Positions 11,186 to 56,863 of a stretch of 64,000 nt of DNA are shown here, one piece after another (the stretch's first letter is position 1; every line of letters starts with the position of its first letter). The translations under genes and the position numbers were made by a program. The notes below the pieces were generated by a model. The model searched no databases. It was not told the DNA's origin and saw only the letters and a list, made by a program, of their open reading frames with translations. Origin of the DNA: Verrucomicrobiota bacterium (GTDB lineage Bacteria > Verrucomicrobiota > Verrucomicrobiia > Opitutales > Cerasicoccaceae); the NCBI GenBank assembly GCA_039818205.1, contig JBCBUK010000002.1:288001-352000 (forward strand). Direction: 5' to 3'.

Positions 11186-12165
11186 TGAGTCACCTAGAGA
11201 CAGCACAGCAGGTTTTTCGAGACGAGATTGCATCGTTGACGACGACGCTATCAAGAATTGAGGGTGATTTTGATCGGGCAGTTGAGCTAATAAGCTCGTT
11301 GCCAGGCAAGATTGTCGTCGCCGGACTTGGAAAGTCGGGTCTGATTGGCGCGAAGATTTCGGCGACACTGGCGAGTACAGGAACCTCTGCCATTTTTATG
11401 AATGCGTCGGAGGCACTTCACGGAGATCTAGGATTTGTTTCCAAGGGAGATGCAGTGCTCATGATCTCCAATAGCGGTGCGACCGTTGAGCTCGTAAAGA
11501 TGCTGCCCTTTTTGGAGCGGATGGGTATCCCAGTGATCGGCATTCTTGGCAATGTAGATACGCCGTTGGCTCAGCGGTGCCAGGTGGTTTTGGATGCGAG
11601 TGTCGAACGGGAAGCTTGCCCGTTAAACTTAGCCCCAATGAGCAGCACAACCGTTGCCCTAGTAATTGGGGATGCTTTGGCTGCTGCGCTCATGAAATTG
11701 CGCCAGTTTGGAGCTGATGAATTTGCTCTTCGCCATCCTGGTGGTGGGCTTGGTGTGCGCTTGTTGTTGAAGGTTGATGACTTAATGCACAGTGGTGATA
11801 CGCTTCCAACGATTAAGCCAGATGCCTCGTTCCGCGAGGTAATCGCTGAGTCAACTCGACCAAACCTTGGTGCGGCCTGTGTCGTCGAAGAAGGCGGCGT
11901 CCTCGCCGGAATAATCACGGATGGTGATGTGCGTCGGTCGTTACTTGATGTGAACGTGATGGGGGCGAGCGCAGCGGAGCTGATGACAAAAAATCCGGTT
12001 ACCATTAGTTCTGGTAGTTCGATTAGCGATGCGCTTGAGATTATGGAAGGGCGCAAGATTTACGTATTGCCAGTAATTGAGTCCGCGTCGCGCCGATTGC
12101 TTGGACTCTTGCGGATGCACGATATCATGGCCGATTTCTCTCCTGAACATGGCGCGACCCGTTAA
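11185..12165 (+). CDS. kdsD: Arabinose-5-phosphate isomerase (KpsF/GutQ family, SIS plus CBS)
   Basis: 'GLGKSG', 'ATLASTGT', 'EALHGDLG', 'EACPLNLAP' and 'HPGG.LG' motifs, then a CBS pair. The GTG start overlaps the kdsA stop. Confidence 0.93.
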   Translation: MSHLETAQQVFRDEIASLTTTLSRIEGDFDRAVELISSLPGKIVVAGLGKSGLIGAKISATLASTGTSAIFMNASEALHGDLGFVSKGDAVLMISNSGATVELVKMLPFLERMGIPVIGILGNVDTPLAQRCQVVLDASVEREACPLNLAPMSSTTVALVIGDALAAALMKLRQFGADEFALRHPGGGLGVRLLLKVDDLMHSGDTLPTIKPDASFREVIAESTRPNLGAACVVEEGGVLAGIITDGDVRRSLLDVNVMGASAAELMTKNPVTISSGSSISDALEIMEGRKIYVLPVIESASRRLLGLLRMHDIMADFSPEHGATR

Positions 12166-13693
12166 GACAGTCGATTCGGCCGAACAGGTTTATGACCCGG
12201 TCGAAGCTTTCCGGCGCGCTAGCAACCCGGGGGCGGCAGGTCGTTCCACTATCGCGCCGCGCGAATGGATTATTATCTATGCGGCAGCTCCGGCACTAAT
12301 CGTTTCGCCGTTTCTACTTGGCGGCATGGTTTGGTGGGCGCAGGTCGCGATTGCAATCATGCAGGCCATTCCTTTCTTGCTCGTGTTGCTGCCGATTCCG
12401 GGGCCGATTGCTTGGAAAGAACGGATGGTTCGGCTATTGCGATTTCCGCCTTTCTGGCTCGGCGGAACGTTTGTCCTCTACGTGATTATTCAGGCGCTCA
12501 ACCCAAGTTGGGAGCAAGTCTACATTGATTCGACAAGTTACTATGTTGGTGAGCGTAAGCCGGAGTATTTTATCTCATGGCTTCCCACGAGTATGAATAC
12601 GAATTTCTATGTTATGAATCCCTGGAGGATGGTGGTTTTTTGGGCCGGAGCTTGGGCATTTGTATGTGCCCTTTGGGCCGGACTGAGAAGTCGCCGTGCT
12701 TGGCTCGCGATTGCCTGGATTGCGTTGGGAACGGGAGCGGTTTTAAGCATGGCAAGTATTGTGCACCACCTTTCCTCCAACGAATACTTATTCTGGATCA
12801 CGGAGTATAAGCGCAATATCAACGCCTTTGGACCGTTTGTTTACCGAAACCAAGGAGCGGCCTATCTGTATCTATCCATGGGAATTGGATTCGCCTTGTT
12901 CTTTCACCTGCTGAATCGAAATGGATTGCGATCGGGCCTTCCGTTAGTGGCGTTGATGCTGGCGTTCGTCTGTGGCCTGGGCGTGGCAATCAATGCATCT
13001 CGTGGTGGATGGATTGGGGGCGCATGCGTCGTGCTCGCATTCATCGTGTTTTTGCCGTTCGCAATTCGCTGGAGGGACGGTTTTTCATGGGGATCACTGG
13101 TTGGTTTTGCGGCCGTCTTGATCTGCATGGGAGGGATCGGCTTTTGGTATTCCTCCACGATGGACTTTAGCGAAATTGACGAGAAGTGGACCAAGATTAT
13201 GGAGGAGCGTGACGACGAGGCATCGATTGGCGCTCGGATTGTCCTAACTGAGATAACTTGGCAGATGTTTAAAGACAAACCGCTTACTGGTTGGGGAGGC
13301 GGGAGTTTTCATTACCAGTTCCCTTACTACGCTGCTGCTTATCCAGAGATATATTTTGTTGGTCGGAGTTGGTGGAGTCAGTATGGGAAAGTCCTTCGAA
13401 AGTACCGGCAGGCCCATAACGATATCGTCCAGTTTCTGTCCGATTACGGAATTATTGGCTGCTCATTTTTGTTTCTGTGCGGCCTGTATTGGTTCGTGAG
13501 GCCAATTCTCAGTCTTTCTTTTTCCGTAGAAGGCCTGATGGCACTGTCAGTTGCTTTCGCCTTTTTGGTTCACAACTTTGCTGATTTTTTTCTGCAAAAT
13601 TCAATCACGCTTCAGAGTTGGCTGATCTTACTGTTGTTATCTGCTGGCCTTAAAGTTTCGAATCGACCGCAACGACGATCGCGGTCGGCTTGA
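12149..13693 (+). CDS. O-antigen ligase (WaaL/Wzy_C) family membrane protein; possibly an oligosaccharyltransferase
   Basis: Multi-TM protein with 'GPFVYRNQ', 'SRGG', 'KPLTGWGGGSF' and 'QAHND..Q.LSDYGIIG'. Confidence 0.85.
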   Translation: MARPVKTVDSAEQVYDPVEAFRRASNPGAAGRSTIAPREWIIIYAAAPALIVSPFLLGGMVWWAQVAIAIMQAIPFLLVLLPIPGPIAWKERMVRLLRFPPFWLGGTFVLYVIIQALNPSWEQVYIDSTSYYVGERKPEYFISWLPTSMNTNFYVMNPWRMVVFWAGAWAFVCALWAGLRSRRAWLAIAWIALGTGAVLSMASIVHHLSSNEYLFWITEYKRNINAFGPFVYRNQGAAYLYLSMGIGFALFFHLLNRNGLRSGLPLVALMLAFVCGLGVAINASRGGWIGGACVVLAFIVFLPFAIRWRDGFSWGSLVGFAAVLICMGGIGFWYSSTMDFSEIDEKWTKIMEERDDEASIGARIVLTEITWQMFKDKPLTGWGGGSFHYQFPYYAAAYPEIYFVGRSWWSQYGKVLRKYRQAHNDIVQFLSDYGIIGCSFLFLCGLYWFVRPILSLSFSVEGLMALSVAFAFLVHNFADFFLQNSITLQSWLILLLLSAGLKVSNRPQRRSRSA

Positions 13694-21774: not shown

Positions 21775-21796
21775 GGTTTTTGTCTCCAAAATCTTG

Positions 21797-23002: not shown

Positions 23003-23006
23003 TAAA

Positions 23007-29394: not shown

Positions 29395-29468
29395 GTTTCC
29401 GCTTGCTAGTACCTCCTCCGCCAAGCTATTCCAGTCCCTCTTACCATTTCCTACGCGAGCAAATATCA

Positions 29469-31433
29469 ATGAACGACCTGAGCAAATACCTGATTGTTTT
29501 CGGGATCTCATTTTTTCTATCTTTCCTGTTAACCCGAGTGATGATCCGGCTTGGGCCTCGTTTTGGTATGATTGATATCCCGGATCAGCGGCGTATTCAC
29601 AAAACGCCAATCCCGCGAGCAGGCGGAGTCGCAGTCTTTATTGCGTTCCACGTTACTGCGTTTATTTTCTATTTATTCGTTTGGCCGAGTTTTTTCCCTT
29701 CGCCGCTAAATTTTGATTGGTGGCTAAGTTTCTTAGTGGCCTCGTCTATTCTCTTTGCCGTCGGGGTCTGGGACGACATCAAAGGCGTTCGGCCGATCGT
29801 CAAGCTATCCGGTCAGGTCTTAGCGGCAGCGACACTGTTTTTCCTCTCTGGAAAGGGCTTTGACAGTATTCTGGGATTTAAAGACATCCCAATGTTCATT
29901 AACTTGCTGTTAACGATAATTTGGTGTGTTGCTCTCATCAACGCCTTTAATCTCATCGATGGCATGGACGGCCTTTGTTCCGGCCTTGCAATCATTTCCT
30001 CGTTGGGAATTGCCGCTGCTTACATTTTGCGCAGCCAGCCAGCGGATTCTTTGATCGTTTTGGCCCTAATTGGTGCGGCATTTGGATTCCTTCGCTACAA
30101 TTTTCACCCAGCTAAGATATTCCTTGGAGATAGTGGCTCCATGTTCTTGGGTTTTACGTTGGCGGCGTTTGCACTCTTTGGCGCTGGTAAGTCAACGGTA
30201 ATGGTGAGCGTTGGTATTCCTTTCATCGCCGCAGGAATCCCCATTATGGATACCGTTCTGGCAATCTGGCGCCGCTCGGCTCGACGTCTGTCGGCTAAGA
30301 TGGAGGGGGATGACGATGGCCCGCATATTATGGGTGCGGACAAAGAACACTTGCATCATCGCCTGCTCGAAGCTGGATTTTCCCAGCGCAAAGTCGCCGT
30401 TATTCTCTACATTGGGAACTTCGCGATGGTGACGGTGGGCCTTTTCTCAGTTTTCATGAGCAAGGCTCTCGTCGGCCTCTTCCTGATTATATTTATCGCT
30501 GGAGTATATGTGGTTGTCCGGCATGTCATTCATGTTGAAATCTGGGACACTGGGCGCTTGATCGCTCAAGGAATTCGTCGCCCTGGACGCGCGCTGTTAG
30601 GCATGATCGTTTACCCGGTTTGGGATTTGATCTGGCTATCGGTTGCGTTGATCACTGCGATGCTTCTGGAGGATCCTAAGTTGGGCTCTCTAATGGACGT
30701 CGGATCTTGGGCGCGCTTGTTACCTGTATGGATTTCTCCGGTGTTCCTAATGCTGGTCCTGGGGAATACCTACTCCCGAGTTTGGTCGCGAAGCAATTTC
30801 CGCGACTATCTGATCCTCTTCTTTTCGTTGATTTCCGGTATTCTCCTGACCTTGGCGTTTTTCTCGGCTGCCGAAGCTGATATTCGGATGGCAAACGTAC
30901 GCGTTAGCATCACCTTCGCTTTCCTTGGTATGATCGGAATTTTTGGCATCCGCGTGATTCTCCAGACATTTCGAGAGTGGATGCTCATTGCTTCGTTCGA
31001 TGATCGCCTAGGCAGCAGATATCTCGTGAAGCATATCCTCCTTTACGGAGCGGGTAATCGCGGCGCACTCTATTTGCGTGAACTTCGCTTGATTCATCCC
31101 GACGAAATGGCCACGCGCAAGATTATCGGTTTCCTCGATGACAACACGAATTTACGCCAGCGCTTTCTTCATGGCGTGCGCGTCATGGGTTGTTTAGACG
31201 AGTTAGAACACATCATCAGTGAAAATGACATCGATGAAATCGTCATTACTGCAGATCTCTTATCCGCACATGAGACTCGTCTAAAGGAGATTGCGGCGCG
31301 ACACGAAGTAGCGGTTAGCGAATGGAAAACCCATTTGAGCGAGGTCGATTTGAGTAATCTTAAGTCGCGAGCAATTGACGATATCGCATCGAGCACGAAG
31401 GAACACACAGAAAAGACTGCCTCCGAGGATTGA
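29469..31433 (+). CDS. WecA/MraY-family phosphoglycosyltransferase fused to a PglF/WcaJ-type TM plus Rossmann (CoA-binding) module
   Basis: 'D.PD.RRIHK.PIPR.GG', 'GVWDD', 'NAFNLIDGMDGL', 'IFLGDSGS' and 'HLHHRL', followed by 4 TM segments and 'LLYGAG.RG...IGFLDD...G'. Confidence 0.85.
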   Translation: MNDLSKYLIVFGISFFLSFLLTRVMIRLGPRFGMIDIPDQRRIHKTPIPRAGGVAVFIAFHVTAFIFYLFVWPSFFPSPLNFDWWLSFLVASSILFAVGVWDDIKGVRPIVKLSGQVLAAATLFFLSGKGFDSILGFKDIPMFINLLLTIIWCVALINAFNLIDGMDGLCSGLAIISSLGIAAAYILRSQPADSLIVLALIGAAFGFLRYNFHPAKIFLGDSGSMFLGFTLAAFALFGAGKSTVMVSVGIPFIAAGIPIMDTVLAIWRRSARRLSAKMEGDDDGPHIMGADKEHLHHRLLEAGFSQRKVAVILYIGNFAMVTVGLFSVFMSKALVGLFLIIFIAGVYVVVRHVIHVEIWDTGRLIAQGIRRPGRALLGMIVYPVWDLIWLSVALITAMLLEDPKLGSLMDVGSWARLLPVWISPVFLMLVLGNTYSRVWSRSNFRDYLILFFSLISGILLTLAFFSAAEADIRMANVRVSITFAFLGMIGIFGIRVILQTFREWMLIASFDDRLGSRYLVKHILLYGAGNRGALYLRELRLIHPDEMATRKIIGFLDDNTNLRQRFLHGVRVMGCLDELEHIISENDIDEIVITADLLSAHETRLKEIAARHEVAVSEWKTHLSEVDLSNLKSRAIDDIASSTKEHTEKTASED

Positions 31434-32803: not shown

Positions 32804-33400
32804 ATGAAGCGCATGTTTGATTTTTTATTTGCTGTTGCGCTTCTAGTTGCCCTGAGCCCCTTGCTTTTGACGCTTGTCTTCTTGGTCCGCTTCAAGATTG
32901 GAAGCCCAGTTTTTTTTACTCAGGACCGACCGGGTTTGAACGGATCAGTATTTCAGCTGATCAAGTTTCGCAGCATGACGAACGACGTTGGCGTAGATGG
33001 TCAGTTGCTGCCCGATGCGGAGCGACTGACATCGTTTGGGCGTTGGCTGCGTTCCTCGAGCCTGGATGAGTTACCAGAACTGTGGAACATCCTGCGCGGT
33101 GATATGAGTTTTATTGGTCCACGCCCACTATTGGTTCGCTACCTGGAGCGGTATTCTCCGGAGCAGGCGCGGCGCCATGAAGTTCGACCTGGCATTACAG
33201 GTTGGGCACAGGTGAATGGAAGGAATACGATATCTTGGGAAGACCGTTTTCGCCTCGATGTTTGGTACGTGGACAATCATAGCCTCTGGTTGGATGTGAA
33301 AATTGTTTGGATGACCGTGGCGAAAGTTTTGAAGCGTGAGGGGATCTCGCCGGAGGGCGCTGAGATAATGCCTGAGTTTATGGGCACAAGAGACGACTAG
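32804..33400 (+). CDS. pglC: Monotopic phosphoglycosyltransferase (PglC-like sugar transferase)
   Basis: 'MKRMFD', 'KFRSM', 'SLDELPELWN.L.GDMS..GPRPL' and 'RPGITGWAQVNGRN' motifs. Confidence 0.9.
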   Translation: MKRMFDFLFAVALLVALSPLLLTLVFLVRFKIGSPVFFTQDRPGLNGSVFQLIKFRSMTNDVGVDGQLLPDAERLTSFGRWLRSSSLDELPELWNILRGDMSFIGPRPLLVRYLERYSPEQARRHEVRPGITGWAQVNGRNTISWEDRFRLDVWYVDNHSLWLDVKIVWMTVAKVLKREGISPEGAEIMPEFMGTRDD

Positions 33401-33406
33401 ACGGCC

Positions 33407-33829
33407 ATGTTTTCGTTTCATCATATCGGTTATCTAGCGGCCAACTTGGAAAAGGCGAAATCCCATTGGATTGAACTCTATGGTTGCACACCCGACGGTG
33501 GGGATATCCATGATGTCGGTCAGCAAGCACGCGTTTGTCTACTGCGTCAACCTGGTCTCGCGGGTTGGGTCGAGCTCATTGCCCCGGACAGTGAGTCCAG
33601 TCACTTACAAAAAGCTTTGCGAAGCAAAGTGAGCTTGCATCACCTAGCCTATGCGGTCGATGACTTTGGGCAGGCGATTGATCGTCTACGTAAGGCTGGC
33701 TGCGTTCCTCTTTGCAAGCCCACCATTGGCATGGCTTTCCAGCGCGAGATAATTTGGTTTCACGACCCCGAACGCGGCTTAGTCGAACTGATTGCGCCTG
33801 GCTCGGGACCTTATCAACTTAACTCCTAA
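33407..33829 (+). CDS. VOC-family protein (methylmalonyl-CoA epimerase-like)
   Basis: Metal-ligand pattern 'FHHIG', 'VELI', 'LHHLAY', 'LVELI'. Confidence 0.8.
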   Translation: MFSFHHIGYLAANLEKAKSHWIELYGCTPDGGDIHDVGQQARVCLLRQPGLAGWVELIAPDSESSHLQKALRSKVSLHHLAYAVDDFGQAIDRLRKAGCVPLCKPTIGMAFQREIIWFHDPERGLVELIAPGSGPYQLNS

Positions 33830-33833
33830 ATCG

Positions 33834-34511
33834 ATGTCGACACCCTTAGTAATTATCGGAGCGGGCGGATTTTCCCTTGAGGCAATATGGTTGGCCAATG
33901 CCATGAATGATGCGGGCACCGGTGATTGGTCGATCGTTGGTCTAGCTGACGATGGCGTGGCTGCTGGTGAGACCGTTGGGGGATTTCAGGTGCTTGGCGC
34001 ACCCCGGGAAGTTGTTCCTACGCTGCCGCCAGACACGGCTTTCCACATCGCGATCGGCGACAATCGCGTGCGACTTCGAGTTGCGGCAGAGCTGATCGTT
34101 GCCGGTCTGAAGCCAGCGAGCTTGATCAGCCCCAAGGCGGTTATTGCCGAAAAGGTCGAGATTGGGCCAGGAAGTTTTGTCGGACATTTTGTCTCGCTCG
34201 CCCCTGAAGTGCGGATAGGCGCCCAGTGCCTAATCAATGTTTCGGCGGTCGTTGGGCACGAAGCGGTGCTGGCAGATGGTGTCCAAGTGTGCCCAGGCGC
34301 AGTCGTCACCGGTCGCTGCCAGGCAGGCGAGGGCGCATTCGTTGGAAGCAATGCAGTGCTTAGTCCCGAAGTCACTATCGGAGCCTGGTCGCGCGTGTCG
34401 GCAAATACCTTCGCCGCAACGAATGTCGACGATGGCGTTACCCTCGCTACCATGCCGGGTCGCCCGGTTTTTTCCCGACGTCGCGAGCGCAAGCCCAGCA
34501 CGACCGATTAA
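33834..34511 (+). CDS. PglD/NeuD/PerB-type sugar N-acyltransferase (left-handed beta-helix)
   Basis: N-terminal Rossmann 'IIGAGG', 'IAIGDNRVR', hexapeptide repeats and a catalytic-His-like 'VVGHE'. Confidence 0.85.
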   Translation: MSTPLVIIGAGGFSLEAIWLANAMNDAGTGDWSIVGLADDGVAAGETVGGFQVLGAPREVVPTLPPDTAFHIAIGDNRVRLRVAAELIVAGLKPASLISPKAVIAEKVEIGPGSFVGHFVSLAPEVRIGAQCLINVSAVVGHEAVLADGVQVCPGAVVTGRCQAGEGAFVGSNAVLSPEVTIGAWSRVSANTFAATNVDDGVTLATMPGRPVFSRRRERKPSTTD

Positions 34512-34518
34512 GCCGATC

Positions 34519-34549
34519 TTGACAATCCTGCGCTCCTATTCGCTATCAT
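34519..34549 (+). promoter_or_regulatory. Possible sigma70 promoter TTGACA-N19-TATCAT just ahead of the ACP gene
   Basis: Perfect -35 box (34519-34524) and near-consensus -10 box (34544-34549), but the spacer is long at 19 nt. Confidence 0.35.
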
Positions 34550-34556
34550 CCCTACA

Positions 34557-34787
34557 ATGAAAGAAAAACTCCGCACCGTTGTTATCGAGCAGTTGAAGAT
34601 TGACCCGAGCGTATACTCCGAAGACTTGGGTGCTGGCGATATCCCTGAGTGGGACTCACTCGCTCATATGAATTTGATTATGGCGGTAGAGCGGGAGTTC
34701 AAAGTGACTTTTGATGTCGCCGATGCCGTCGACCTTGAAACCATTGGTGACTTTGAAGACGCATTGTCCCGCTACCAGAACTCCTGA
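34557..34787 (+). CDS. Acyl carrier protein (RfbK/WbeK-like)
   Basis: 76 aa acidic protein with the phosphopantetheine site 'WDSLAHM.LI..VE..F.V.F'. Confidence 0.92.
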   Translation: MKEKLRTVVIEQLKIDPSVYSEDLGAGDIPEWDSLAHMNLIMAVEREFKVTFDVADAVDLETIGDFEDALSRYQNS

Positions 34788-34801
34788 AGGCACCCCGAGC
34801 G

Positions 34802-36220
34802 GTGCTCGATTTATCAGTGATTAACGAGCACAGTCACTGGACCTTAGCAGACATCCTTGACCGCGGAAGTGACCGTTGGTCGAGCCGTGTCGCCGTTGCT
34901 GACGCAGCGGGCTCATCGACCTATAATGAGTTGGCCGATCGGTCGCGGCGTTTAGCAAACTGGTTGACTACGCAGGGCGTTGAGGCAGGAGATCGCGTTC
35001 TGCTCTCACTGCCGAATTCGGTCCGATTTGTCGAAGCCCTTTTCGCGGTTCAGTTCGCAGGTGCGGTATCGGTACCATTGGATCCCACCTTGGCGCTTCC
35101 GCAGCGCCAAGCCATTGAGCAAAGCGCGACACCCAAGTTTGCCTTAGATGACAATACGCCCTGGGAAGAAGCGTTCAACCCGAGCCCGATACCATCGATT
35201 GTTCGACGTGGCCCCAGTGATTTGGCCGCGCTTATGTATACGACTGGGACGACCGGTGAACCCAAGGGGGTGATGCTCACCCACCGCAATATTTTCGCGG
35301 CCCTACGCAACATTATCGAGTTTGTTGGCTACACTGAGCGTGATCGCGAAGTCGTTACGTTACCGCTATCGCACAATTTTGGTCTTGGACATGTTTATTG
35401 TAATCTGTTTGTCGGCGGTGCGGTTTTCCTCGAGCCGGGACTAAGCCGAGTTGGGCGGGTGCTCAAAGCCATTGAGTCATTTGGTGCGACCGGGTTTCCT
35501 ACAACGCCGCTTGGCGTTGGCTTGTTGCTGGATCGCTATGGAGAAGTCTTTGCCGAACGGGCGAAGGGTTTGCGCTTCATGGTCGTTAATTCTGCTCCGC
35601 TGCCGCCCGAACGGACAGCGCAACTGCAGAAGTGTATGCCGAAGCTCGACATCATGGTCTACTACGGTTTGACGGAAGCCTCTCGATCAACCTTCATTTC
35701 GCTCAGTCAGGAAGGTCCCGATCGCTATGCTTCGGTAGGGCCTGCGATGAACGGCGTCAAGGTGAAGCTCGATGAGCAGGGGCAGGTTGTCATTGGTGGC
35801 CCGACCGTAACTCAGGGATATTGGGACTCTCCCGAGCAAACGAATCAAGCGATTAAGAGTGGTGAGCTTCACACGGGCGATCTCGGTCGATTTGATGACG
35901 ATGGCTATCTTTATATTGTCGGGCGGCAGAACGACCTCATCAACTTGGGGGGCTACAAGATAAATCCCATGACGGTCGAGCGCGTCGTCGAAGGGTTCGT
36001 TGGCGTTCAAGAGTGTGGGGTAGCGGGGGTTGATGCCATCAAGGCATTTGTCGTCGCCGAGACCGAATTTGATGAAGACGCTCTCACGCGTCATTGCCGG
36101 GAGTATCTGCAGAACCATGAGGTCCCAAGCGCCTTTGTCTGTGTTGATAAGTTGCCGCGAACCGATAGCGGTAAGCTCAAGCGGCAAGACTTGCTAAAAC
36201 TGGATTGTCCGATTGGCTAA
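34802..36220 (+). CDS. Class I adenylate-forming enzyme / acyl-ACP ligase (RfbL/WbeL-like)
   Basis: 'YTTGTTGEPKGV', 'YGLTE', 'TGDLG', 'GR..DLI..GG' and 'LPRTDSGK' motifs. GTG start. Confidence 0.9.
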   Translation: MLDLSVINEHSHWTLADILDRGSDRWSSRVAVADAAGSSTYNELADRSRRLANWLTTQGVEAGDRVLLSLPNSVRFVEALFAVQFAGAVSVPLDPTLALPQRQAIEQSATPKFALDDNTPWEEAFNPSPIPSIVRRGPSDLAALMYTTGTTGEPKGVMLTHRNIFAALRNIIEFVGYTERDREVVTLPLSHNFGLGHVYCNLFVGGAVFLEPGLSRVGRVLKAIESFGATGFPTTPLGVGLLLDRYGEVFAERAKGLRFMVVNSAPLPPERTAQLQKCMPKLDIMVYYGLTEASRSTFISLSQEGPDRYASVGPAMNGVKVKLDEQGQVVIGGPTVTQGYWDSPEQTNQAIKSGELHTGDLGRFDDDGYLYIVGRQNDLINLGGYKINPMTVERVVEGFVGVQECGVAGVDAIKAFVVAETEFDEDALTRHCREYLQNHEVPSAFVCVDKLPRTDSGKLKRQDLLKLDCPIG

Positions 36221-36226
36221 TAGCTG

Positions 36227-37351
36227 ATGTTGCAATTACGCGTTCCTTTACCCCGTTTTGTTTCCGCTGGAGAAGTCCTTGGTGGTGCCGGCTCGATTGG
36301 AGCATTGCGTGCCCTCGACGCTGCGAGGGTTGCCGTGCTGGCTTCGCCGTCGGTTCTTTCAAAACATGGCGAGCTCCTTAAACGGTCGATGGGTGCGGAG
36401 GCCGTAGAGCTGATTGGGATGCCCAGGGGAGAGCCTGCCCTTGGAAAGCTGGCTCCAGTGCTTGCGCAGATGGAGAGTTTTCAACCGGATTGGATAGTCG
36501 CAGTGGGCGGCGGTTCAGTGCTCGATGGTGCTAAGATCGCCTGGATCTTTTACGAGCACCCAGCTGTGGATCACGATCGCATATTCCGCGTTGGTGGAGT
36601 GCCAACTTTGCGTGGCAAAGCTCGGCTTGTTGCCGTTCCAACAACGACTGGAACTGGATCTGAGGTGAGCTCATCAGCACTACTCTTAGACGATAGGACT
36701 GGGTCCAAGCGAGCGTTAGTCTCCCACGACTTGCTGCCCGATGTGGCGATACTTGACCCACGCCTAGCAGTCGGATGCCCAAGAGACGTGATTGTGAATG
36801 CCGGTATGGATGCCCTGGCCCATGCGGTGGAAAGCTATGTCTCGCGCCTGAAAAATCCTCTAGCGGATTCATTGGCGGAGAAGGCTGCGTCGGAAATTCT
36901 TTCAGCCTTACCCAGCTTTGCCAAACAGCCAGAGGACGAGCGCCTTTGCGAAAAGATGATGAACTCATCCTTGCTTGCAGGCTGGGTTCAAAATCAGAAG
37001 GTTCCTGGTGTCGGGCACGCAATCGCGCATCAACTCGGTGGCTTTGGTGTCGCCCATGGTCACGCAACAGGTCGCCTCCTTGCGCCAGCAATTACCTATA
37101 ACTGCCAAAGCGCCGAGGTGCGCCAACAATATGATTCTTTGGCTAATGCAGTTGGCTTGTCGTCGGCTGAGGAGTTGGCCGAGAAAATCCGGTCTTTGGT
37201 CGAGACCCTTGAGATGCCAGCCCTCGATGGAAAGTTCGATGAATCGATGGAATCCATTGTTACCGGAGCGATCGAGGATCCATGCGCACGGATGAATCCG
37301 CTGCCTGTAGAAGCTAAAGCTGTGGAGCAGATACTGGAGGCAAGTCGATGA
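36227..37351 (+). CDS. Iron-containing alcohol dehydrogenase (RfbM/WbeM-like)
   Basis: 'VGGGSVLDGAK', 'PTTTGTGSEV', 'DALAHAVE' and 'GHAIAH....HG' motifs. Confidence 0.92.
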   Translation: MLQLRVPLPRFVSAGEVLGGAGSIGALRALDAARVAVLASPSVLSKHGELLKRSMGAEAVELIGMPRGEPALGKLAPVLAQMESFQPDWIVAVGGGSVLDGAKIAWIFYEHPAVDHDRIFRVGGVPTLRGKARLVAVPTTTGTGSEVSSSALLLDDRTGSKRALVSHDLLPDVAILDPRLAVGCPRDVIVNAGMDALAHAVESYVSRLKNPLADSLAEKAASEILSALPSFAKQPEDERLCEKMMNSSLLAGWVQNQKVPGVGHAIAHQLGGFGVAHGHATGRLLAPAITYNCQSAEVRQQYDSLANAVGLSSAEELAEKIRSLVETLEMPALDGKFDESMESIVTGAIEDPCARMNPLPVEAKAVEQILEASR

Positions 37352-39840
37352 TCGATGACCTGATAAAAAGTCAGCCCTACGGCCTTCTGCCAGAAGAACG
37401 ATCGCGGCTATTGGCCGATGCAATGCACCAAGCCTATCGACATCATTTTGAGAATTGCGCCGCTTATCGCCGTTTCTGTCAGGGTAGGGGGCTAAGCCTT
37501 TCGAGCCGATTCGAGCGGTTGTCCGATTTTCCTTACCTGCCGGTTCAAGCCTTTAAGGACTCGGCGGATCTCTTGCGTTCGGTCCCCGCCGATCAGGTAA
37601 AAACCACCTTGGAGTCCTCCGCGACCAGTGGCCTTCCCAGTAGCGTTGCCATCGATTCCGTAACCGCCAAGCGACAAGTGCGGGCTTTGGCAGGGGTACT
37701 GGGTGCCTCACTTGGGCCGACCCGTCGACCCGTGGTCGTGATTGATGCCGACCCACGAAGTGGGCGGGCTGTTTTGGGAGCGCGCGGTGCTGCGGTTCAG
37801 GGTTTTCTGAATTTAGCGCGCGAGGCCCATTACATTTTAGACGCGGATCAGGGAGCACTGAGCTTGAATCGGGAGAAGCTCCAATCGCTGGTTAACGCGT
37901 GGACGGGCCGTGAGGAACCAGTGCTCTTCTTCGGATTTACGTTTTTGATCTATTCATTGGTGCTCGGACCGTTGTCCGAAGCCGGACTACGGTTTCCGTT
38001 GCCGCCGGGTTCGCGCCTCGCCCATTTGGGCGGTTGGAAGAAACTGGCCGATCAAGCGGTTTCGAAGGAAGTCTTCGCTCAGCGGGCTGCGGATGTGTTT
38101 GGTATCGAGCCCGATCACGTGGTCGACTTCTATGGGTTTACCGAACAGATGGGCGTCACCTATCCCGACGGCCCAGACGGCAATAAGTTCGCGCCATCCT
38201 TTTCGGAAGTCATTGTGCGCGATCCGCAAACCTTGGAACCAGCCACGGATGGTCAGCCGGGCCTCTTACAATTTCTAACGCCGCTGCCGCACAGTTACCC
38301 GGGCATCTCTGTATTGACGGATGACATCGGAGTGATCACGGGGCGTGGTGGATCAGGCGATTGGTGTGGGACGCAATTTCGAGTTCTCGGTCGAGCCAAG
38401 CAGGCTGAGGCACGTGGCTGTGGCGATATCCTGGGCGAGAAGGTTGCGGCGGCGAGAAAGCAAGCGCAGGCTGGGCAGGTTGCTGACCTGCGATTACTCT
38501 TTTCACCGGATGCATCGCCCGCTTGTGATGCCCGCTGGAACGCTCCGCTGGCACTGGAGAGCTTGCCTCAGATTGAGAGCCCTAACCAGTTTTCCGAGCA
38601 ATTGCGTGAAGCCCGTAAGCGATTGGATAACTATTCTGTCGATGAGTTGATAGCTCTGATTTCGAAGGCGGCCGAGCGCTGGGTTGATGCTGAATCTCCG
38701 TTGGCCGAATTGCGTCAACAGGGTCTGCTCTTTTTGTATTCCTGGTGTCGCCCAGATCGTTTGGCCCGACTGGCTGACGAAGGCCTTCGTGGCAAGCGTG
38801 GCTACCTCGATGGTCCTAAGCCAATTGGCGGAAATCGAGTGCGGATGCTTGGTGCACGTCACCGGGGCTTGGCGGTCCACTGGCTTGCTGGGAACGTTCC
38901 AGTTCTGGGTATGCTCACCTTGGTCCAGTCCATCCTTGCCCGAAATGCAAATCTGGTCAAAGCAGCCAGCCGTTTTACCCGCGTGTTGCCCCTGCTCCTA
39001 GAGGCTTTTCGCGATCTGAAGGTCACTTCCCCCGGCGGTAAAGAGCTTCTTGGCAATGACATCATTGCTTCGATCGGAGTTGTCTATTGCGATCGGGCGG
39101 ATCGCCAGTCGGCCGAATCGATCTCTCGGGAAGCCGATATCCGCCTCGCCTGGGGTGGCCGCGAAGCGGTTGAAGCGGTGACCACGCTGCCACGAAAAGT
39201 GAGCGCAGAAGACATCATCTTTGGTCCAAAGTTTTCGTTCATGGTGATTGGTCAATCCGCCTTGACGACCGAACGTTCTTTCCGACGCTTGGCTCGCAGA
39301 GCCGCAACCGATGTGTGTGTGTTCGAGCAAACGGGCTGCGCCTCGCCACATACAATTTTCGTTGAGAATGGGGCGATCACCGCTGAGATCTTCGCGAAGC
39401 GACTTGCCGAAGAACTGGACAAAGCATTGGTCCGTTTTCCAGCCCCGCCCGCCGGTCCCGAAGATGCCTCCCGGATTGAGGCACGAAGAATCCGGGGAGA
39501 GTTGACGGGGCGCGTTTGGAAGTCCAGTGGCGTTGCCTGGACAGTGGTCTTAGACGAGGAGGGTGCCCGTTCGCTCGCACCACCGTGCACGGGACGTGTA
39601 ATAACCGTGCGATCGATTCAGAGCCCCACTGACGTTCTTCCGTTGGTCAACGACGGTATTCAAACCGTGGGACTCGGTCTGAAAGGGGAGACCCGCCTTC
39701 AGTTCGCCCTGGAAGCAGCGCGATTAGGAGCTGAGCGCTTTCCCGATATTGGTCGAATGACCCTCTTCGAATCGCCGTGGGACGGACTATTCCCGTTGGA
39801 ACGTCTGGTTAAGTGGTATTCCTTGGGCGGGCCAGCCTAA
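37348..39840 (+). CDS. LuxE (acyl-protein synthetase)-LuxC (acyl reductase) fusion (RfbN/WbeN-like)
   Basis: N-terminal half 'PYLPVQAFK', 'SSATSG', 'FGFT', 'GGWKK', 'FYGFTEQ', 'SYPGISVLTDD.G', 'GR...AEARGC' (LuxE). C-terminal half 'HWLAGNVP', 'WGG..AV', 'FGPKFS', 'FEQTGCASP' (LuxC). Confidence 0.9.
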   Translation: MIDDLIKSQPYGLLPEERSRLLADAMHQAYRHHFENCAAYRRFCQGRGLSLSSRFERLSDFPYLPVQAFKDSADLLRSVPADQVKTTLESSATSGLPSSVAIDSVTAKRQVRALAGVLGASLGPTRRPVVVIDADPRSGRAVLGARGAAVQGFLNLAREAHYILDADQGALSLNREKLQSLVNAWTGREEPVLFFGFTFLIYSLVLGPLSEAGLRFPLPPGSRLAHLGGWKKLADQAVSKEVFAQRAADVFGIEPDHVVDFYGFTEQMGVTYPDGPDGNKFAPSFSEVIVRDPQTLEPATDGQPGLLQFLTPLPHSYPGISVLTDDIGVITGRGGSGDWCGTQFRVLGRAKQAEARGCGDILGEKVAAARKQAQAGQVADLRLLFSPDASPACDARWNAPLALESLPQIESPNQFSEQLREARKRLDNYSVDELIALISKAAERWVDAESPLAELRQQGLLFLYSWCRPDRLARLADEGLRGKRGYLDGPKPIGGNRVRMLGARHRGLAVHWLAGNVPVLGMLTLVQSILARNANLVKAASRFTRVLPLLLEAFRDLKVTSPGGKELLGNDIIASIGVVYCDRADRQSAESISREADIRLAWGGREAVEAVTTLPRKVSAEDIIFGPKFSFMVIGQSALTTERSFRRLARRAATDVCVFEQTGCASPHTIFVENGAITAEIFAKRLAEELDKALVRFPAPPAGPEDASRIEARRIRGELTGRVWKSSGVAWTVVLDEEGARSLAPPCTGRVITVRSIQSPTDVLPLVNDGIQTVGLGLKGETRLQFALEAARLGAERFPDIGRMTLFESPWDGLFPLERLVKWYSLGGPA

Positions 39841-40544
39841 GTGTTTGCCTCGGATTCCAGGCTAGCAGGGACCAACGCAACCTCGGCTAAATCGCTGAGG
39901 ATCTCCTGCATCAACGGTGAATTCCAGATCTCCTTGATCGGACGGTTGCTGTTAATGCGAATGAAAAATTGCTCCCGCTGCTGATGAAGCCCGTAACGAA
40001 ACAAGGTCTTGAACGGCGCAAACCGGTCCCATTGGCCGGCTTTCGTTCGGTTGACGTGAATATGATCCCCCAGCACATGCCAATAGGCGACGTGTTGCGT
40101 ATGGTTTTGCTTTTCCAAGGTCCGCATCTCGGCGGGATAAAGCTCTTGGCCACCGATCTCGCAGCGAACATCATATTCCTTGTCCATCATCGTCCAACCA
40201 GCGCGCACCCAACAAACATCGGGTGTGTGGGACTGAACCAGCCGAACCGGCATTTTCTTGGGCTCCCAATAACCGACGTAGAGTGTGATCGTAGTATCGC
40301 CGCGAGTATAGTTCCGGTTCAATGCCTGCGAAAAATTCAAGATGCCTTCAACAGTCTCTTCCAAGCCCTCTGATTCGGCCAGTGGGCGATCTTCAATTTC
40401 CCAACCGTCAAATTCCGAGACAATCTTTTCGGTGAGTACGCCCTCCATGGTTTTGGGCGGCGAATAAATGAATGCGGTGTAGCCCAGCGCGATGCAACTG
40501 AAGACCGCAATGATTGCTCCGATGATAAAGAATGCCTTGCGCAT
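39837..40544 (-). CDS. epsI: Exosortase-associated EpsI-family protein
   Basis: N-terminal TM, 'R.Y..G...ITLYVGYW', 'HTPDVCWVRAGW' and 'VAYWH' motifs. Confidence 0.85.
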   Translation of the reverse strand: MRKAFFIIGAIIAVFSCIALGYTAFIYSPPKTMEGVLTEKIVSEFDGWEIEDRPLAESEGLEETVEGILNFSQALNRNYTRGDTTITLYVGYWEPKKMPVRLVQSHTPDVCWVRAGWTMMDKEYDVRCEIGGQELYPAEMRTLEKQNHTQHVAYWHVLGDHIHVNRTKAGQWDRFAPFKTLFRYGLHQQREQFFIRINSNRPIKEIWNSPLMQEILSDLAEVALVPASLESEANT

Positions 40545-40588
40545 GATTGCCCCTATGATTTGAAAAGGTTTCCGAAAAAGTCAAATGC

Positions 40589-40608
40589 GGGAAATCGACG
40601 AATTTCCC
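40589..40608. promoter_or_regulatory. Inverted repeat GGGAAAT-N6-ATTTCCC between the divergent epsI and aminotransferase genes
   Basis: Perfect 7-bp arms, next to a minus-strand TTGACT-N18-AATCAT promoter-like motif (40584-40555). Confidence 0.35.
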
Positions 40609-40654
40609 TTAACAATCTAGAGTCATTACTCGTTAAAGTGTTCCCGATTTAATC

Positions 40655-41788
40655 ATGCCGCCTTCCCGTGTCTTCTTGTCTCCCCCGGATGTTTCTGATG
40701 TTGAACGAAATGCGCTGCTGGCTGCGTTCGATTCAGGCTGGATCGCACCCGTTGGTCCCGAATTAGCAGCGTTTGAGACGGATATTTCAAAAGCAATTGG
40801 AGTGCAGCATGTTGTGGCACTTTCTTCGGGGACGGCGGCATTGCACTTGGCGTTAAAAGAGCTCGGGATCGGCATGGGCGACCGTGTTTATTGTTCCACC
40901 CTAACCTTCGTTGCGTCGGCCAATGCGATCAGATACTGCGGCGCCGAGCCGGTCTTCATCGATAGCGATGCGAAGAGTTGGTGCATGGATCCGAACTTGC
41001 TCGCGGATCAATTGGCAAGAGATGCTGAACGAGGACAGCTGCCTAAAGCCGTCGAAGTGGTTGATATCTACGGCCAATGTGCGGATTACCAAACAATTTC
41101 GAATCTCTGTCAGCGCTACGAGATTCCCCTGATAGAGGACGCCTCGGAGGCCCTTGGAGCCACCCACGAGATGGGTGCAGCAGGCTCCTTTGGGGAGGCG
41201 GCCGTCTTGTCGTTTAATGGAAACAAAATGATTACGACTTCGGGCGGTGGCGCTTTCCTGACCAATAATGCGGATTTAGCCGAACGCGTGCGCTTTTTGT
41301 CGACTCAGGCACGGGAACCCGTCCGGGAATACTTACACCGCGAAGTCGGCTATAATTACCGTTTAAGTAACGTTCTTGCGGCATTGGGCCGAGCTCAGCT
41401 CGGCCGGTTGGAAGGTTTCATCGCTCGGCGGCGGGAGATCTTTGAGCGATATCAAGCCGAGCTCTCGATCCTACCTGGGGTTGGCTTTATGCCCGAAGCT
41501 GAATGGGGAAGGTCAAACCGCTGGCTGACCTGCGTTACGCTGGAAAAAGACGCTCCTTGCGGACGAGACCAGATCATCGATGCCTTGGAGGCCGAAAACA
41601 TTGAAGCGCGCCCGGTTTGGCGACCAATGCATCAACAACCGGCCTTCAGCGGGTCTCAAGCGGTTCTCAATGGCGTCTCGGACGGACTCTTTGCCCAGGG
41701 ACTTTGCTTGCCCAGCGGAAGTAGCCTCAACGATGACGACCAGTCCCGCGTCATTGACGTTGTTCAATCATGTTTTATGCCCGCCTGA
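40655..41788 (+). CDS. pglE: DegT/DnrJ/EryC1/StrS aminotransferase (PglE-like)
   Basis: 'FLSPP', 'WIAPVGP', 'SSGTAALHLAL', 'SFNGNKMITTSGGG' (PLP Lys) and 'GLCLPSGS'; PglE/EpsN subgroup pattern. Confidence 0.88.
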   Translation: MPPSRVFLSPPDVSDVERNALLAAFDSGWIAPVGPELAAFETDISKAIGVQHVVALSSGTAALHLALKELGIGMGDRVYCSTLTFVASANAIRYCGAEPVFIDSDAKSWCMDPNLLADQLARDAERGQLPKAVEVVDIYGQCADYQTISNLCQRYEIPLIEDASEALGATHEMGAAGSFGEAAVLSFNGNKMITTSGGGAFLTNNADLAERVRFLSTQAREPVREYLHREVGYNYRLSNVLAALGRAQLGRLEGFIARRREIFERYQAELSILPGVGFMPEAEWGRSNRWLTCVTLEKDAPCGRDQIIDALEAENIEARPVWRPMHQQPAFSGSQAVLNGVSDGLFAQGLCLPSGSSLNDDDQSRVIDVVQSCFMPA

Positions 41789-41869
41789 TTGTTGGTATTG
41801 ACCGTTGAGGTTATATACATCGTATTATATCCCTCACAATAAATCTACTCGCTTCCCACATCTCCCCTG

Positions 41870-43777
41870 ATGCATAGAGGTATCCGGCGCACCCGACTCA
41901 TTTTATGGGCCATGATTTTCATGGCTTGCTTTGTTTCGCTGTACCTTTCCTATCAGATCCGATTTGAGTTCGAGGTTCCGTTCGAACCAAAGAATTGGCA
42001 GTTGATCATGTGGGAGACCATGCAGTGGATCATCCCCATTGAGCTGGTTGTCTTCTACGCGTTTGGCTTGTTCGAACCCTTAGTCGCGCGGTATCGCTGG
42101 CGAGACCTGCTTAGAGTGGGGTCTGGCATTTCGCTTATTAGCGGGTTTTTGCTCTACCTCTGGTATATCTTTGAAGGGGAAAAAACTCCGCCGCGCTCGG
42201 TGATCATTATCAATGGTCTCTTTCTCGTGGTTCTGATGAGCGCGATCAGCTCACTTTCGTCGCAACTACGCTTCATCCTGACTGGCAACTTGAAAGCGCT
42301 CCCGACTCGACCGTCGCGAGTTGTGGCCGTTGGCACCGGTTTCCTTTGTTACCAGCTGATCCAGCAGACACGGGCACGCAGCGGTTTGGCCCTGCGGGTT
42401 GTTGGGCTCGCGGTGACCGAAAGTAAACTGCAGGCGGGCGACCATTGGCTCGGGGTACCTGTTGGTGGACACGTTAGTCGGATCGAGAAAATCTTTCGCC
42501 GCTTCGATCCCGATCGAGTGATCGTTACCGATCCGATGCTATCTAAGGAAGAACTGCGCGAGTTGGTGCACTCCTGCCGCAACCTACATGTTCCCGTTTA
42601 CATTGTCCCGACGGCGCAGGAGATGTTCTACGGTGTTCTGCGTTTGGACACAATCCGCCCGGTTGGCTTGGATGATATTCTTGGTCGCCACTTACTCGAG
42701 ACGGATCTGCCTCGGATTGGTCGTCTGTTAAGCGGCCGACGGGTGATGGTCACCGGCGCGGGTGGTAGTATCGGTAGTGAGCTCTGCCGCCAGATTTTAG
42801 CCTACGCGCCGAGCCAACTGTCTATTCTTGATTTCTCCGAAGCCTCACTTTTCCAGATTGAGCAGAACCTGCGCACCATGCCGATGGGCGACCGGGTTAA
42901 TCCGGTGCTTGCCGATGTTCGAGACAAGGAAACGATGGCGGGAATCCTCACGAGCGAACAACCAGAAATCATCTTTCACTCAGCTGCGCTCAAGCATGTA
43001 CCAATGGTTGAAGCATTCCCGGCGGAAGCGCTCCGGACGAATTCGCTGGCGACCAACCAATTGGCGGATCTCGCCGCACAATCGGGCGTCGAGCGCATGA
43101 TCTTTGTTTCGACCGATAAGGCGATCAACCCGACGAGTTTGATGGGTGCATCCAAGCGCTTGGCTGAACTCTTTATTCAGGCGCACTCGCGGAATGGGCC
43201 GGACACCGCATTTCTGGCGGTTCGATTCGGCAACGTCATCGGATCTTCCGGTAGCGTTGTGCCGACCTTCGAGCGCCAGATCGCTGCCGGCGGCCCGGTG
43301 ACGGTGACTCACGAGGATGTGCAACGCTATTTCATGTCGATCCCCGAGGCAGTGGGATTGGTCCTGCAGAGTGCGACTCAGGGCAGTGGTGGTGAGATCT
43401 TCATGCTCGATATGGGGCAGCCGCTCAAGGTGCTCGATATTGCCCGGGAGATGATTCAGCTGCGTGGCCTGGAGCCCAAACGCGATATCGAGATCCGCAT
43501 CGTTGGCCTACGACCTGGCGAAAAATTATTCGAGGAGTTGCGCTACGATGAGGAGATTCACGATACCACCTCGCACCCTCGCGTTTATCGCCTAACGGCC
43601 GAGGCGCTTTCGCGTGACGAGGCCAAGCAACTGCTCGCCCGCGTTGAGGAAGCCTCTCACTTGTCAAACCCCGATGAGATCCAACAGGTCATCAAGGAGC
43701 TGATTCCAGAGTTTATTGATAAGGACGAAGCGATCCGGGTTAACCAGAGTTCGCCGAGTCCAGTGGGCCGCATTTGA
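41870..43777 (+). CDS. pglF: Membrane-bound UDP-GlcNAc 4,6-dehydratase (PglF/CapD/WbpM family)
   Basis: 4 N-terminal TM segments, then 'VTGAGGSIGSELCRQ', 'AALKHVP', 'STDKA.NP...MGASK', 'RFGNV.GS.GSV' and 'GLRPGEKL.EEL'. Confidence 0.92.
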   Translation: MHRGIRRTRLILWAMIFMACFVSLYLSYQIRFEFEVPFEPKNWQLIMWETMQWIIPIELVVFYAFGLFEPLVARYRWRDLLRVGSGISLISGFLLYLWYIFEGEKTPPRSVIIINGLFLVVLMSAISSLSSQLRFILTGNLKALPTRPSRVVAVGTGFLCYQLIQQTRARSGLALRVVGLAVTESKLQAGDHWLGVPVGGHVSRIEKIFRRFDPDRVIVTDPMLSKEELRELVHSCRNLHVPVYIVPTAQEMFYGVLRLDTIRPVGLDDILGRHLLETDLPRIGRLLSGRRVMVTGAGGSIGSELCRQILAYAPSQLSILDFSEASLFQIEQNLRTMPMGDRVNPVLADVRDKETMAGILTSEQPEIIFHSAALKHVPMVEAFPAEALRTNSLATNQLADLAAQSGVERMIFVSTDKAINPTSLMGASKRLAELFIQAHSRNGPDTAFLAVRFGNVIGSSGSVVPTFERQIAAGGPVTVTHEDVQRYFMSIPEAVGLVLQSATQGSGGEIFMLDMGQPLKVLDIAREMIQLRGLEPKRDIEIRIVGLRPGEKLFEELRYDEEIHDTTSHPRVYRLTAEALSRDEAKQLLARVEEASHLSNPDEIQQVIKELIPEFIDKDEAIRVNQSSPSPVGRI

Positions 43778-54145: not shown

Positions 54146-54177
54146 AACGATGGGGCCATTTTCGACCCGCTCAAGGA

Positions 54178-56836: not shown

Positions 56837-56863
56837 GGGAATCCTAGGGCGTTTGTGTTGCGG

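Follow-up and report, generated by a model that had tools for sequence, protein, structure and literature searches.

The locus described here raises the question of which sugar, bearing which acyl group, is made where genes resembling the tetronate genes of the Vibrio cholerae O1 antigen lie among genes of the bacillosamine pathway. It was found in a 64,000-nucleotide stretch (contig positions 288001–352000, hereafter the window) of the 4.85 Mb, 99.97% complete genome of a Verrucomicrobiota bacterium of the family Cerasicoccaceae. Judged from its sequence, the locus probably makes an N-acylated bacillosamine that would be the first sugar of a surface glycan, its acyl group being supplied by a donor cassette of the V. 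cholerae WbeKLMN (RfbKLMN) type.

Gene content and arrangement of the locus

The donor cassette consists of four consecutive plus-strand genes, encoding a stand-alone acyl carrier protein (ACP) with Ser34 in a DSL motif (34557..34787; PF00550), an adenylating ligase (34802..36220; PF00501), an iron-dependent alcohol dehydrogenase (Fe-ADH) (36227..37351; PF00465/PF25137) and a fused LuxE-LuxC carboxylate reductase (37348..39840; PF04443 and PF05893). With the wbe locus of V. cholerae ATCC 14035 (L096) as reference, these proteins share 36% identity with WbeK over 69 amino acids (aa), 30% with WbeL over 470 aa, 40% with WbeM over 374 aa and 43% with WbeN over 830 aa, respectively, and the order of the four genes is common to both. 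Each of WbeK, WbeL, WbeM and WbeN finds the window gene as its best match in the source genome, the ACP being the sole match to WbeK, and in the Vibrio genome the ligase and the ADH are reciprocal best matches of wbeL and wbeM. Because all four proteins match in the same order, chance is not the explanation, and the first-pass annotation was right to read these genes as rfbKLMN-type.

Upstream on the same strand lie genes for a PglC-type small monotopic phosphoglycosyl transferase (32804..33400, in an open reading frame (ORF) open from 32798; PF02397, E 5.6e-65), a VOC metalloenzyme of the glyoxalase I/methylmalonyl-CoA epimerase fold (33407..33829; PF13669, E 3.8e-17; TIGR03081 below its cut-off) and a PglD/PerB/VioB-type N-acyltransferase of an ACP-linked clade (33834..34511, ORF open from 33792; PF17836 and PF00132; 157.9 bits with TIGR03570, cut-off 160.8). 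The seven genes from pglC (32804) to LuxE-LuxC (39840) are separated by gaps of at most 45 bases or overlap slightly, and they extend a plus-strand glycan cluster beginning near 7 kb. A minus-strand gene for an exosortase-associated EpsI-type (DUF3485) protein (39837..40544; PF11984, E 8.6e-12; 41 bits with TIGR02914, cut-off 42.8) shares its last 4 bases with the end of the LuxE-LuxC frame and points away from the next two plus-strand genes, which encode a PglE-type UDP-4-keto-6-deoxy-GlcNAc aminotransferase of the DegT family (40655..41788; PF01041) and a PglF-type membrane UDP-GlcNAc 4,6-dehydratase (41870..43777; PF02719, E 3.2e-110). All nine genes named in the first-pass annotation are present with the domains given for them. 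The co-directional run that it described holds from pglC to LuxE-LuxC and does not extend to pglE and pglF, which form a separate transcription unit because the EpsI-type gene intervenes. That gene stands at the same position in loci L011, L013, L014, L029 and L207. A scan for promoters and terminators did no better than shuffled sequence (5 against 6.1, and 12 against 14.6). Two phosphopantetheinyl transferases are encoded in the source genome.

In GTDB genomes a pattern scan gave 279 candidate stretches, of which 247 were confirmed to hold the cassette; the best 80 per scan were listed and, after removal of repeated contigs, 120 distinct loci were examined. Locus labels come from BLAST to annotated family representatives and partner counts from tblastn with bit-score thresholds, which may undercount the ADH; the counts are lower bounds, since many loci are truncated, related genomes do not count as independent and the labels rest on BLAST. 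Among the 98 loci with at least 4 kb upstream, an ACP was found within 4.5 kb in 91, the ligase in 88 and the Fe-ADH in 60. The synteny survey proposed at the first pass, pglCDEF against per genes, gave a bacillosamine pairing (pglE with pglC or pglF, no neuB) in 13/120 loci and a perosamine pairing (gmd with wbeO) in 1/120, that of V. cholerae.

The acceptor sugar

The best solved match of the window PglC is the Campylobacter transferase of di-N-acetylbacillosamine (diNAcBac) 1-phosphate, 8g1n (233 bits, against 135 for WbaP). Numbered from 32798, its D90-E91 dyad, GQLLP loop, PRP motif and aromatic box (Y115/Y119/W147/F151/F194) agree in alignment with the fingerprint of diNAcBac phosphoglycosyl transferases, given in PMC10186338 as a five-residue aromatic box, a GxLLP loop and a DE dyad. 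The source genome yielded one gene each of the PglD, PglE, PglF and close PglC types. For PglE, the best solved match is 1o61, which we take to be PglE itself (270 bits; perosamine synthetase scores 248). A tree of 34 rows puts the window PglE in a 14-row clade (Shimodaira-Hasegawa-like approximate likelihood ratio test support 99) that excludes V. cholerae Per, and the loci of this clade mostly carry pglF or pglC, with neither seen in the available DNA of L200. As no second PglD-type gene was found in the genome, the PglE product would need the transferase of the window. Together with the ACP-linked clade of that transferase, these observations make UDP-4-amino-bacillosamine, loaded by PglC, the most likely acceptor, a well supported assignment that agrees with the first-pass annotation.

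The claim that gmd and per genes are lacking is correct for the window, and a V. cholerae Per query found no perosamine synthase ortholog in the source genome, its best match being the window PglE at 35%. Outside the window, two tandem gmd-like genes lie on the same contig (264016–265983), about 55 kb upstream of the cassette. They adjoin an ABC-transporter ATPase and a methyltransferase-like gene in what appears to be a separate glycan locus.

The alternative that survives best, though we consider it unlikely, leaves the cassette chemistry as it is and gives it another acceptor, either the product of a DegT aminotransferase on contig C18 or GDP-perosamine, with bacillosamine acetylated or handled separately. 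Besides the gmd-like genes, the genome encodes four DegT aminotransferases above the cut-off (E <1e-78), and the unlinked one on C18 groups (support 100) with aminotransferases of cassette loci linked to FdtA. Elsewhere cassettes serve nonulosonate pathways (neuB in 15/120 loci) and 3-amino-sugar pathways (fdtA in 4/120), and the scores of PglE and Per on solved structures are close. Yet neither FdtA nor NeuB was matched in the source genome with the queries used, and the three DegT genes outside the window adjoin ArnT-like, GT2/GT-C and Rfb-type genes. The tree, moreover, separates PglE from Per in spite of the match between them, and this alternative would call for the second PglD-type gene, to acetylate bacillosamine, that was not found.

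The acyltransferase and the VOC protein

At the first pass the acyltransferase was called PglD/PerB-type and set beside an rfbKLMNO block that includes an acyltransferase; the enzyme is of PglD type and no relative of WbeO. WbeO is a 188-aa protein with the hexapeptide domain only, and its closest solved structure is 3vbi (E 2.5e-50), presumably AntD. A relationship of the window enzyme to WbeO was rejected at a best local score of 22 bits over 54 residues, and matches to a WbeO query in the source genome were weak and away from the cassette. The solved-structure matches of the window enzyme are 4m98, 7txp, 4m9c and 4ea7.

In a 58-row tree the acyltransferase belongs to a 20-row clade (support 97), where its nearest neighbours outside Cerasicoccus come from two Pseudomonadota metagenome-assembled genomes (MAGs; L018 and L025) in which the whole six-gene unit of VOC, transferase, ACP, ligase, ADH and fusion recurs. 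The catalytic His142 is kept in 20/20 rows of the clade and Gln151 in 19/20; position 193 is Phe in 16/20, against Val in 25/37 other rows. At positions 191 and 193 the window enzyme carries Asn and Phe, the four solved enzymes compared having Gly and Val there; we take this stretch (191–193) to line the groove for coenzyme A (CoA).

The acyltransferase was also searched in 400 Verrucomicrobiae genomes and the source genome (E <=1e-20; 7 candidates scored per genome), and 20 genomes matched. The two best matches (G312 and G012) are in the only other genomes with a full fusion, at E <1e-280 and about 3 kb away; their loci were already among those surveyed, so that they represent an unbiased draw and not new DNA. 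G215 has a LuxE half at 42%, and distant matches to the fusion occur in 66 other Verrucomicrobiae genomes. From the other 17 acyltransferase matches nine were fetched, G140 and the seven weakest being left out. The transferase has a FabH-type gene beside it in 8 of these nine, an ACP in 7, an FkbH protein in 2 and pgl genes (pglE and/or pglC/pglF) in 3, while neither FabH nor ACP lies near it in G074. Related transferases, often with EpsI, occur in other Verrucomicrobiae (L199–L202, L204, L205, L208 and L209) with a donor module made of FabH with FabG or FkbH. From the clade, the neighbours and the altered residues we infer that the window enzyme is an ACP-dependent N-acyltransferase.

An improbable alternative is that the PglD-type enzyme is an ordinary acetyl-CoA acetyltransferase making diNAcBac, and that the cassette acylates the polymer (as O-acyl), a lipid or a protein through some other transferase. 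The best solved matches are indeed acetyl-CoA enzymes, the diNAcBac fingerprint of PglC is unchanged, the cluster contains three further hexapeptide acyltransferases, and some cassette loci have no PglD-type gene (39/120 have one). Its position between the VOC and ACP genes, its travelling with ACP modules and the replacement of Gly/Val by N191/F193 argue for an acyl-ACP donor instead.

For the VOC protein the solved-structure matches are 2qh0/3hdp, and residues of metal-ligand type are kept among cassette-linked VOCs (H6 in 18/18, E56 in 17/18, H79 in 18/18 and E127 in 17/18). It may possibly act as an epimerase of the hydroxyacyl thioester. In another locus (L170:14208–16427) a homolog of the VOC protein adjoins genes for an FkbH-like phosphatase and an ACP, which fits a role on 2-hydroxyacyl carriers. 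With a VOC gene in 24/120 loci, the enzyme is optional across the cassettes.

The carboxylate reductase, the ligase and the identity of the acyl group

A FastTree tree of 86 LuxE+LuxC sequences (740 residues or more per locus, with split genes joined end to end) places the window fusion and WbeN in one ingroup (support 0.992), in different subclades. The outgroups were the lux operon pair and two plasmid pairs, at 23–27% identity to the window fusion. In this tree check against long-chain reductases, suggested at the first pass, the fusion thus groups with WbeN (43%) and not with the lux pair (23%). Residues K231, R349, C358 and C664 are invariant in 48/48 sequences; the first three fall in the LuxE K238/R355/C364 motifs and the last in the LuxC C296 motif (PMC9157457), C664 by motif and not by direct alignment. 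Membership of the bioluminescence LuxCDE system was rejected on identity, on position outside the clade and on NCBIfam Lux models, which score far below their cut-offs (92 bits against 550 and 88 against 750), and plasmid LuxE/LuxC matches at 25–28% were rejected as orthologs, three of them being used as outgroups. A role of LuxE-LuxC and the ADH in supplying long-chain fatty aldehydes or alcohols to a lipid that has no connection with the sugar is very improbable: it has in its favour domain names only, the NCBIfam LuxE, LuxC and long-chain ligase models matching far below cut-off, and the reading of lux-like genes in Aeromonas flagellar glycosylation islands as fatty-acid genes (PMC7874193), against which stand the higher identity to WbeN, an invariant arginine in the ligase pocket and the occurrence of the cassette mostly in glycan loci.

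The ligase was compared with other cassette ligases, 60 being retained from 80 rows after near-duplicates and five ligases of another type lacking R295 were left out. H191, F193 and R295 are invariant in 60/60. The predicted model has the ANL fold (predicted local distance difference test score 93; modelled without ligand contacts), and the solved structures nearest to its pocket region are those of oxalyl-CoA synthetase, VinN, MenE and MatB, with the LgrA peptide synthetase ranking between them. The pocket comprises N192, F193, H197, N263 and R295, of which N192/F193/N263/R295 align to D230/F231/S299/R331 of VinN with no gap at the last site. As described in PMC11253843 and PMC7756342, S299 and R331 of VinN are proposed to hold the distal carboxyl of methylaspartate and D230 its amine. 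The alignment therefore suggests a C4 diacid without an amine as the substrate of the window ligase.

Two pocket types fall into separate clades: S-R-E-G at positions 192/197/261/263 in 39/60 ligases, including WbeL, and [NS]-H-V-N in 16/60, including the window ligase; the remaining 5/60 have other combinations. As the types differ in this way, the Vibrio product is not simply transferable to the window, and the tetronate group named at the first pass was not established, the ligase being in a separate clade with a pocket unlike that of WbeL. WbeL (L096:7432–8847) is 59% identical to its nearest listed relative and WbeN 84% (comparison locus L079), so WbeL has diverged faster than WbeN, possibly with a change of substrate.

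Even for V. cholerae the tetronate pathway is still called putative in the literature examined. It is said to have been proposed from sequence by Morona in 1995. In PMC3441752, VC0248–VC0252 are assigned to tetronate synthesis by prediction and deletion of wbeL is described as causing loss of the O antigen; PMC12208996 likewise predicts a role of wbe in tetronate synthesis.

Malate/lactate-dehydrogenase-family genes adjoin the cassette in 6/120 loci, five of them with an RKPG/RRPG motif that we take to be linked to malate. The hint is indirect, since those loci lie outside the clade of the window. If malate were bound as in VinN, C4 would be tethered and 3,4-dihydroxybutyryl would result; if C1 were tethered, the product would be tetronate, whose C2 the VOC enzyme could invert; from succinate 4-hydroxybutyryl would be formed. 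Within the N-acyl-bacillosamine scheme, 2,4-dihydroxybutyryl (tetronate or its mirror form) is our tentative first choice, at clearly less than even chances, followed by 3,4-dihydroxybutyryl at about one chance in four; 4-hydroxybutyryl and all other groups together are each rather unlikely, to the same degree. The Yersinia ruckeri O1 glycan carries 4-hydroxybutyryl; no genome of this serotype was among the 80 best loci of either GTDB scan, and no paper on its glycan was found. The same group is known on a 3-amino sugar of Pseudoalteromonas (PMC3210612).

Proposed pathway

In the pathway proposed, PglF and PglE would convert UDP-GlcNAc to UDP-2-acetamido-4-amino-2,4,6-trideoxyglucose, a step for which homology is evident and the chemistry is family knowledge. 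The ligase, to judge by its pocket, would adenylate one carboxyl of a C4 dicarboxylate, most likely malate and otherwise succinate, and load it onto the ACP. LuxE-LuxC, whose catalytic residues are in place, would use ATP and NADPH to turn the free carboxyl into an aldehyde, which the Fe-ADH would reduce further to the alcohol, although reduction could also precede loading. The VOC enzyme may, speculatively, invert the hydroxyl-bearing carbon. The PglD-type enzyme would then acylate the 4-amino group with the 4-hydroxylated butyryl group carried by the ACP, and PglC would place the sugar-1-phosphate on the lipid carrier.

Several points weigh against this scheme. All the proteins are known from sequence alone, with activity, product and glycan structure deduced from it. 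Linkage to an ACP or cassette in the acyltransferase clade arises partly by construction, as 16/20 rows were gathered by nearness to the cassette, and the two Pseudomonadota MAGs with the six-gene unit show no pglE or pglF in their available DNA. In the window itself, pglE and pglF sit in another transcription unit than the donor cassette, and a second initiator, WecA, lies in the same cluster. Of five pocket positions compared in addition to R295, three differ between the window ligase and WbeL, position 192 being mixed (N/S), and the six dehydrogenase-linked loci whose clade was checked or that entered trees all come from gut Bacteroidota/Bacillota outside the clade of the window. Finally, RfbL is said in PMC12208996 to activate finished 2,4-dihydroxybutanoate, which is the opposite order of steps.

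A more specific version of the scheme is doubtful, at perhaps one chance in five. Here malate would be bound as in VinN and activated at C4, and the fusion would reduce C1, giving an N-(3,4-dihydroxybutyryl)-bacillosamine, possibly inverted by the VOC enzyme, as the linking sugar of a glycan perhaps carried on PEP-CTERM surface proteins by way of the Wzy_C protein; RfbKLMN-type cassettes would then be a general plug-in making several N-acyl tags from a C4 dicarboxylate, the altered pocket of the window's clade shifting the chemistry. Such a sugar, a regio-isomer of the V. cholerae tag, was not found in the literature searched.

Distribution of the cassette

The closest named relatives of the fusion are from Cerasicoccus species, at 73–74% identity, which confirms the verrucomicrobial origin called probable at the first pass. 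Among 60 relatives of the source organism the fusion was found in 5/5 of the same genus, 1/10 of the rest of the family and 0/45 of other families of the order. The cassette is nevertheless spread across many phyla, and split LuxE/LuxC versions occur in two DPANN archaeal MAGs (L037 and L038). The rarity supposed at the first pass was overstated on this count and in view of the 13 loci with bacillosamine genes; it was also overstated for the sugar, because N-hydroxyacyl-bacillosamines are known and an ACP-fed PglD homolog has been proposed (PMC6519341, PMC3210612).

FabH was found in 37/120 loci and transketolase in 24/120. The transketolase-type loci, from gut Bacteroidota and some Bacillota (L073, L075, L077, L085, L086, L088, L090 and others), have the cassette mostly without Fe-ADH and with a short-chain dehydrogenase/reductase and a split transketolase pair. 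We infer that in these a two-carbon extension of the tethered aldehyde yields a polyhydroxy-hexanoyl group, for which the 2-methoxy-4,5,6-trihydroxyhexanoyl group of the Treponema denticola flagellin glycan is a possible match. In L015, L017, L020, L045, L046 and L047 a window-type cassette occurs with FabH, in most with FabG and a second ACP as well; these are predicted to make an acyl tag of six carbons, and in L045 and L046 they adjoin pglC/pglE/pglF. Several of the NeuB loci with the cassette (L079, L115, L078, L060, L155 and others) contain a gene of 340–360 aa without a Pfam match together with a deacetylase, a candidate route for exchanging N-acetyl for hydroxyacyl.

The cassette is therefore not a Vibrio speciality. 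In the loci surveyed it is an exchangeable source of acyl groups that accompanies amino-sugar pathways of four kinds and in some cases is lengthened by FabH/FabG or a transketolase pair. Many N-acyl sugars still to be described are accordingly predicted for bacteria of gut, sea and sediment, and the usual lux or fatty-acid annotation of the cassette genes is corrected. Cultured Cerasicoccus strains with the same locus (C. arenae KCTC 12870, L011; C. frondis NBRC 105381, L014; C. maritimus NBRC 105382, L013) combine donor, transferase, acceptor pathway and initiating transferase in compact form, making the chemistry testable end to end in a non-pathogen.

Destination of the glycan and other genes of the window

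The upstream cluster (7818–31433) encodes GmhA, the HldE kinase half, KdsA, KdsD, Wzy_C and Wzy proteins, a GT2 and six GT4 glycosyltransferases, three hexapeptide acyltransferases, a DUF4838 protein and WecA. The last is a WecA-type polytopic initiating transferase with an extra C-terminal domain (29403..31433, plus strand; PF00953; TIGR02380 below its cut-off), possibly a second starter for a glycan. The O-antigen-ligase-family (Wzy_C) protein (12077..13693, plus strand; PF04932, E 8.1e-18) is a candidate for the enzyme that attaches the glycan to lipid A or to protein, and homologs of it lie near related modules in L015, L022 and L201. An O antigen would fit the genes for 3-deoxy-D-manno-octulosonic acid (Kdo) and heptose, Wzy, the Wzy_C ligase and the lpxC gene of the source genome. 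Protein glycosylation or an exopolysaccharide would fit the 7 exosortase-family and 39 PEP-CTERM matches in the genome and the recurring EpsI neighbour, found near the transferase in 5/9 of the fetched control loci. No Wzx flippase was found in the 64-kb window, and three candidates lie elsewhere in the genome.

A 227-aa protein of the same cluster (17535–18218, plus strand) has no Pfam match at E 0.05, and its features and structure in the ESM Atlas suggest a sulfotransferase, so that the glycan of this cluster may be sulfated. Two GT4 ORFs (21794–23002 and 22638–24020) overlap by 365 bases when read from their first start codons, the second probably starting later. On the minus strand, 53357–57679 encodes an ExeA-like AAA ATPase followed by three proteins without a Pfam match.

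Comparison with known systems

The donor and acceptor parts are both known from other systems; their pairing was not found in the literature searched. Nor was the cassette itself found there outside V. cholerae, in a search that did not cover the subscription journals, home of most glycan structures. To the V. cholerae wbeKLMNO system (rfbKLMNO, VC0248–VC0252) the window is alike in ACP, ligase, Fe-ADH and fusion and in their order. It differs in having a PglD-type instead of a WbeO-type acyltransferase, an added VOC gene and a ligase pocket in which N-H-V-N replaces S-R-E-G (R295, F193 and H191 being shared), and in the absence of linked gmd and per genes, its acceptor probably being bacillosamine and not perosamine. 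On WbeO type, linked gmd/per and WbeL pocket alike, the window is by sequence not a member of the full wbeKLMNO–perosamine system.

The ligase and ACP resemble VinN/VinL, the stand-alone dicarboxylate adenylation enzyme and ACP of vicenistatin synthesis, F231, S299 and R331 of VinN being matched by F193, N263 and R295. Overall similarity is low (61 bits over the pocket region), the window has Asn for the amine-binding Asp230, and reduction would follow instead of decarboxylation.

Where the donor side works like WbeKLMN, the acceptor side works like wfpD/wfpG/pglEF of Flavobacterium psychrophilum, in which a PglD homolog is predicted to take an acyl group from its own ACP and pass it to UDP-Qui2NAc4NH2, and the O-polysaccharide contains Qui2NAc4N(3,5-dihydroxyhexanoyl), with the genes pglE, pglF, wfpG, wfpD and wfpC/E/F (PMC6519341). 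In that organism ketoacyl synthases and a reductase assemble the acyl group, whereas the window would use carboxyl adenylation and reduction and has no FabH; the two are likened by that paper's description and not by sequence. A further parallel for the acceptor part is the PglFEDC pathway of Campylobacter, Neisseria and Acinetobacter, which shares with the window the dehydratase, the aminotransferase, the PglD-fold transferase and a PglC with the diNAcBac fingerprint, and QuiNAc4NAc is a known first sugar in A. baumannii capsules (PMC10320297). The window departs from that pathway in the altered residues of its transferase and probably in its donor, which would be an acyl-ACP and not acetyl-CoA.

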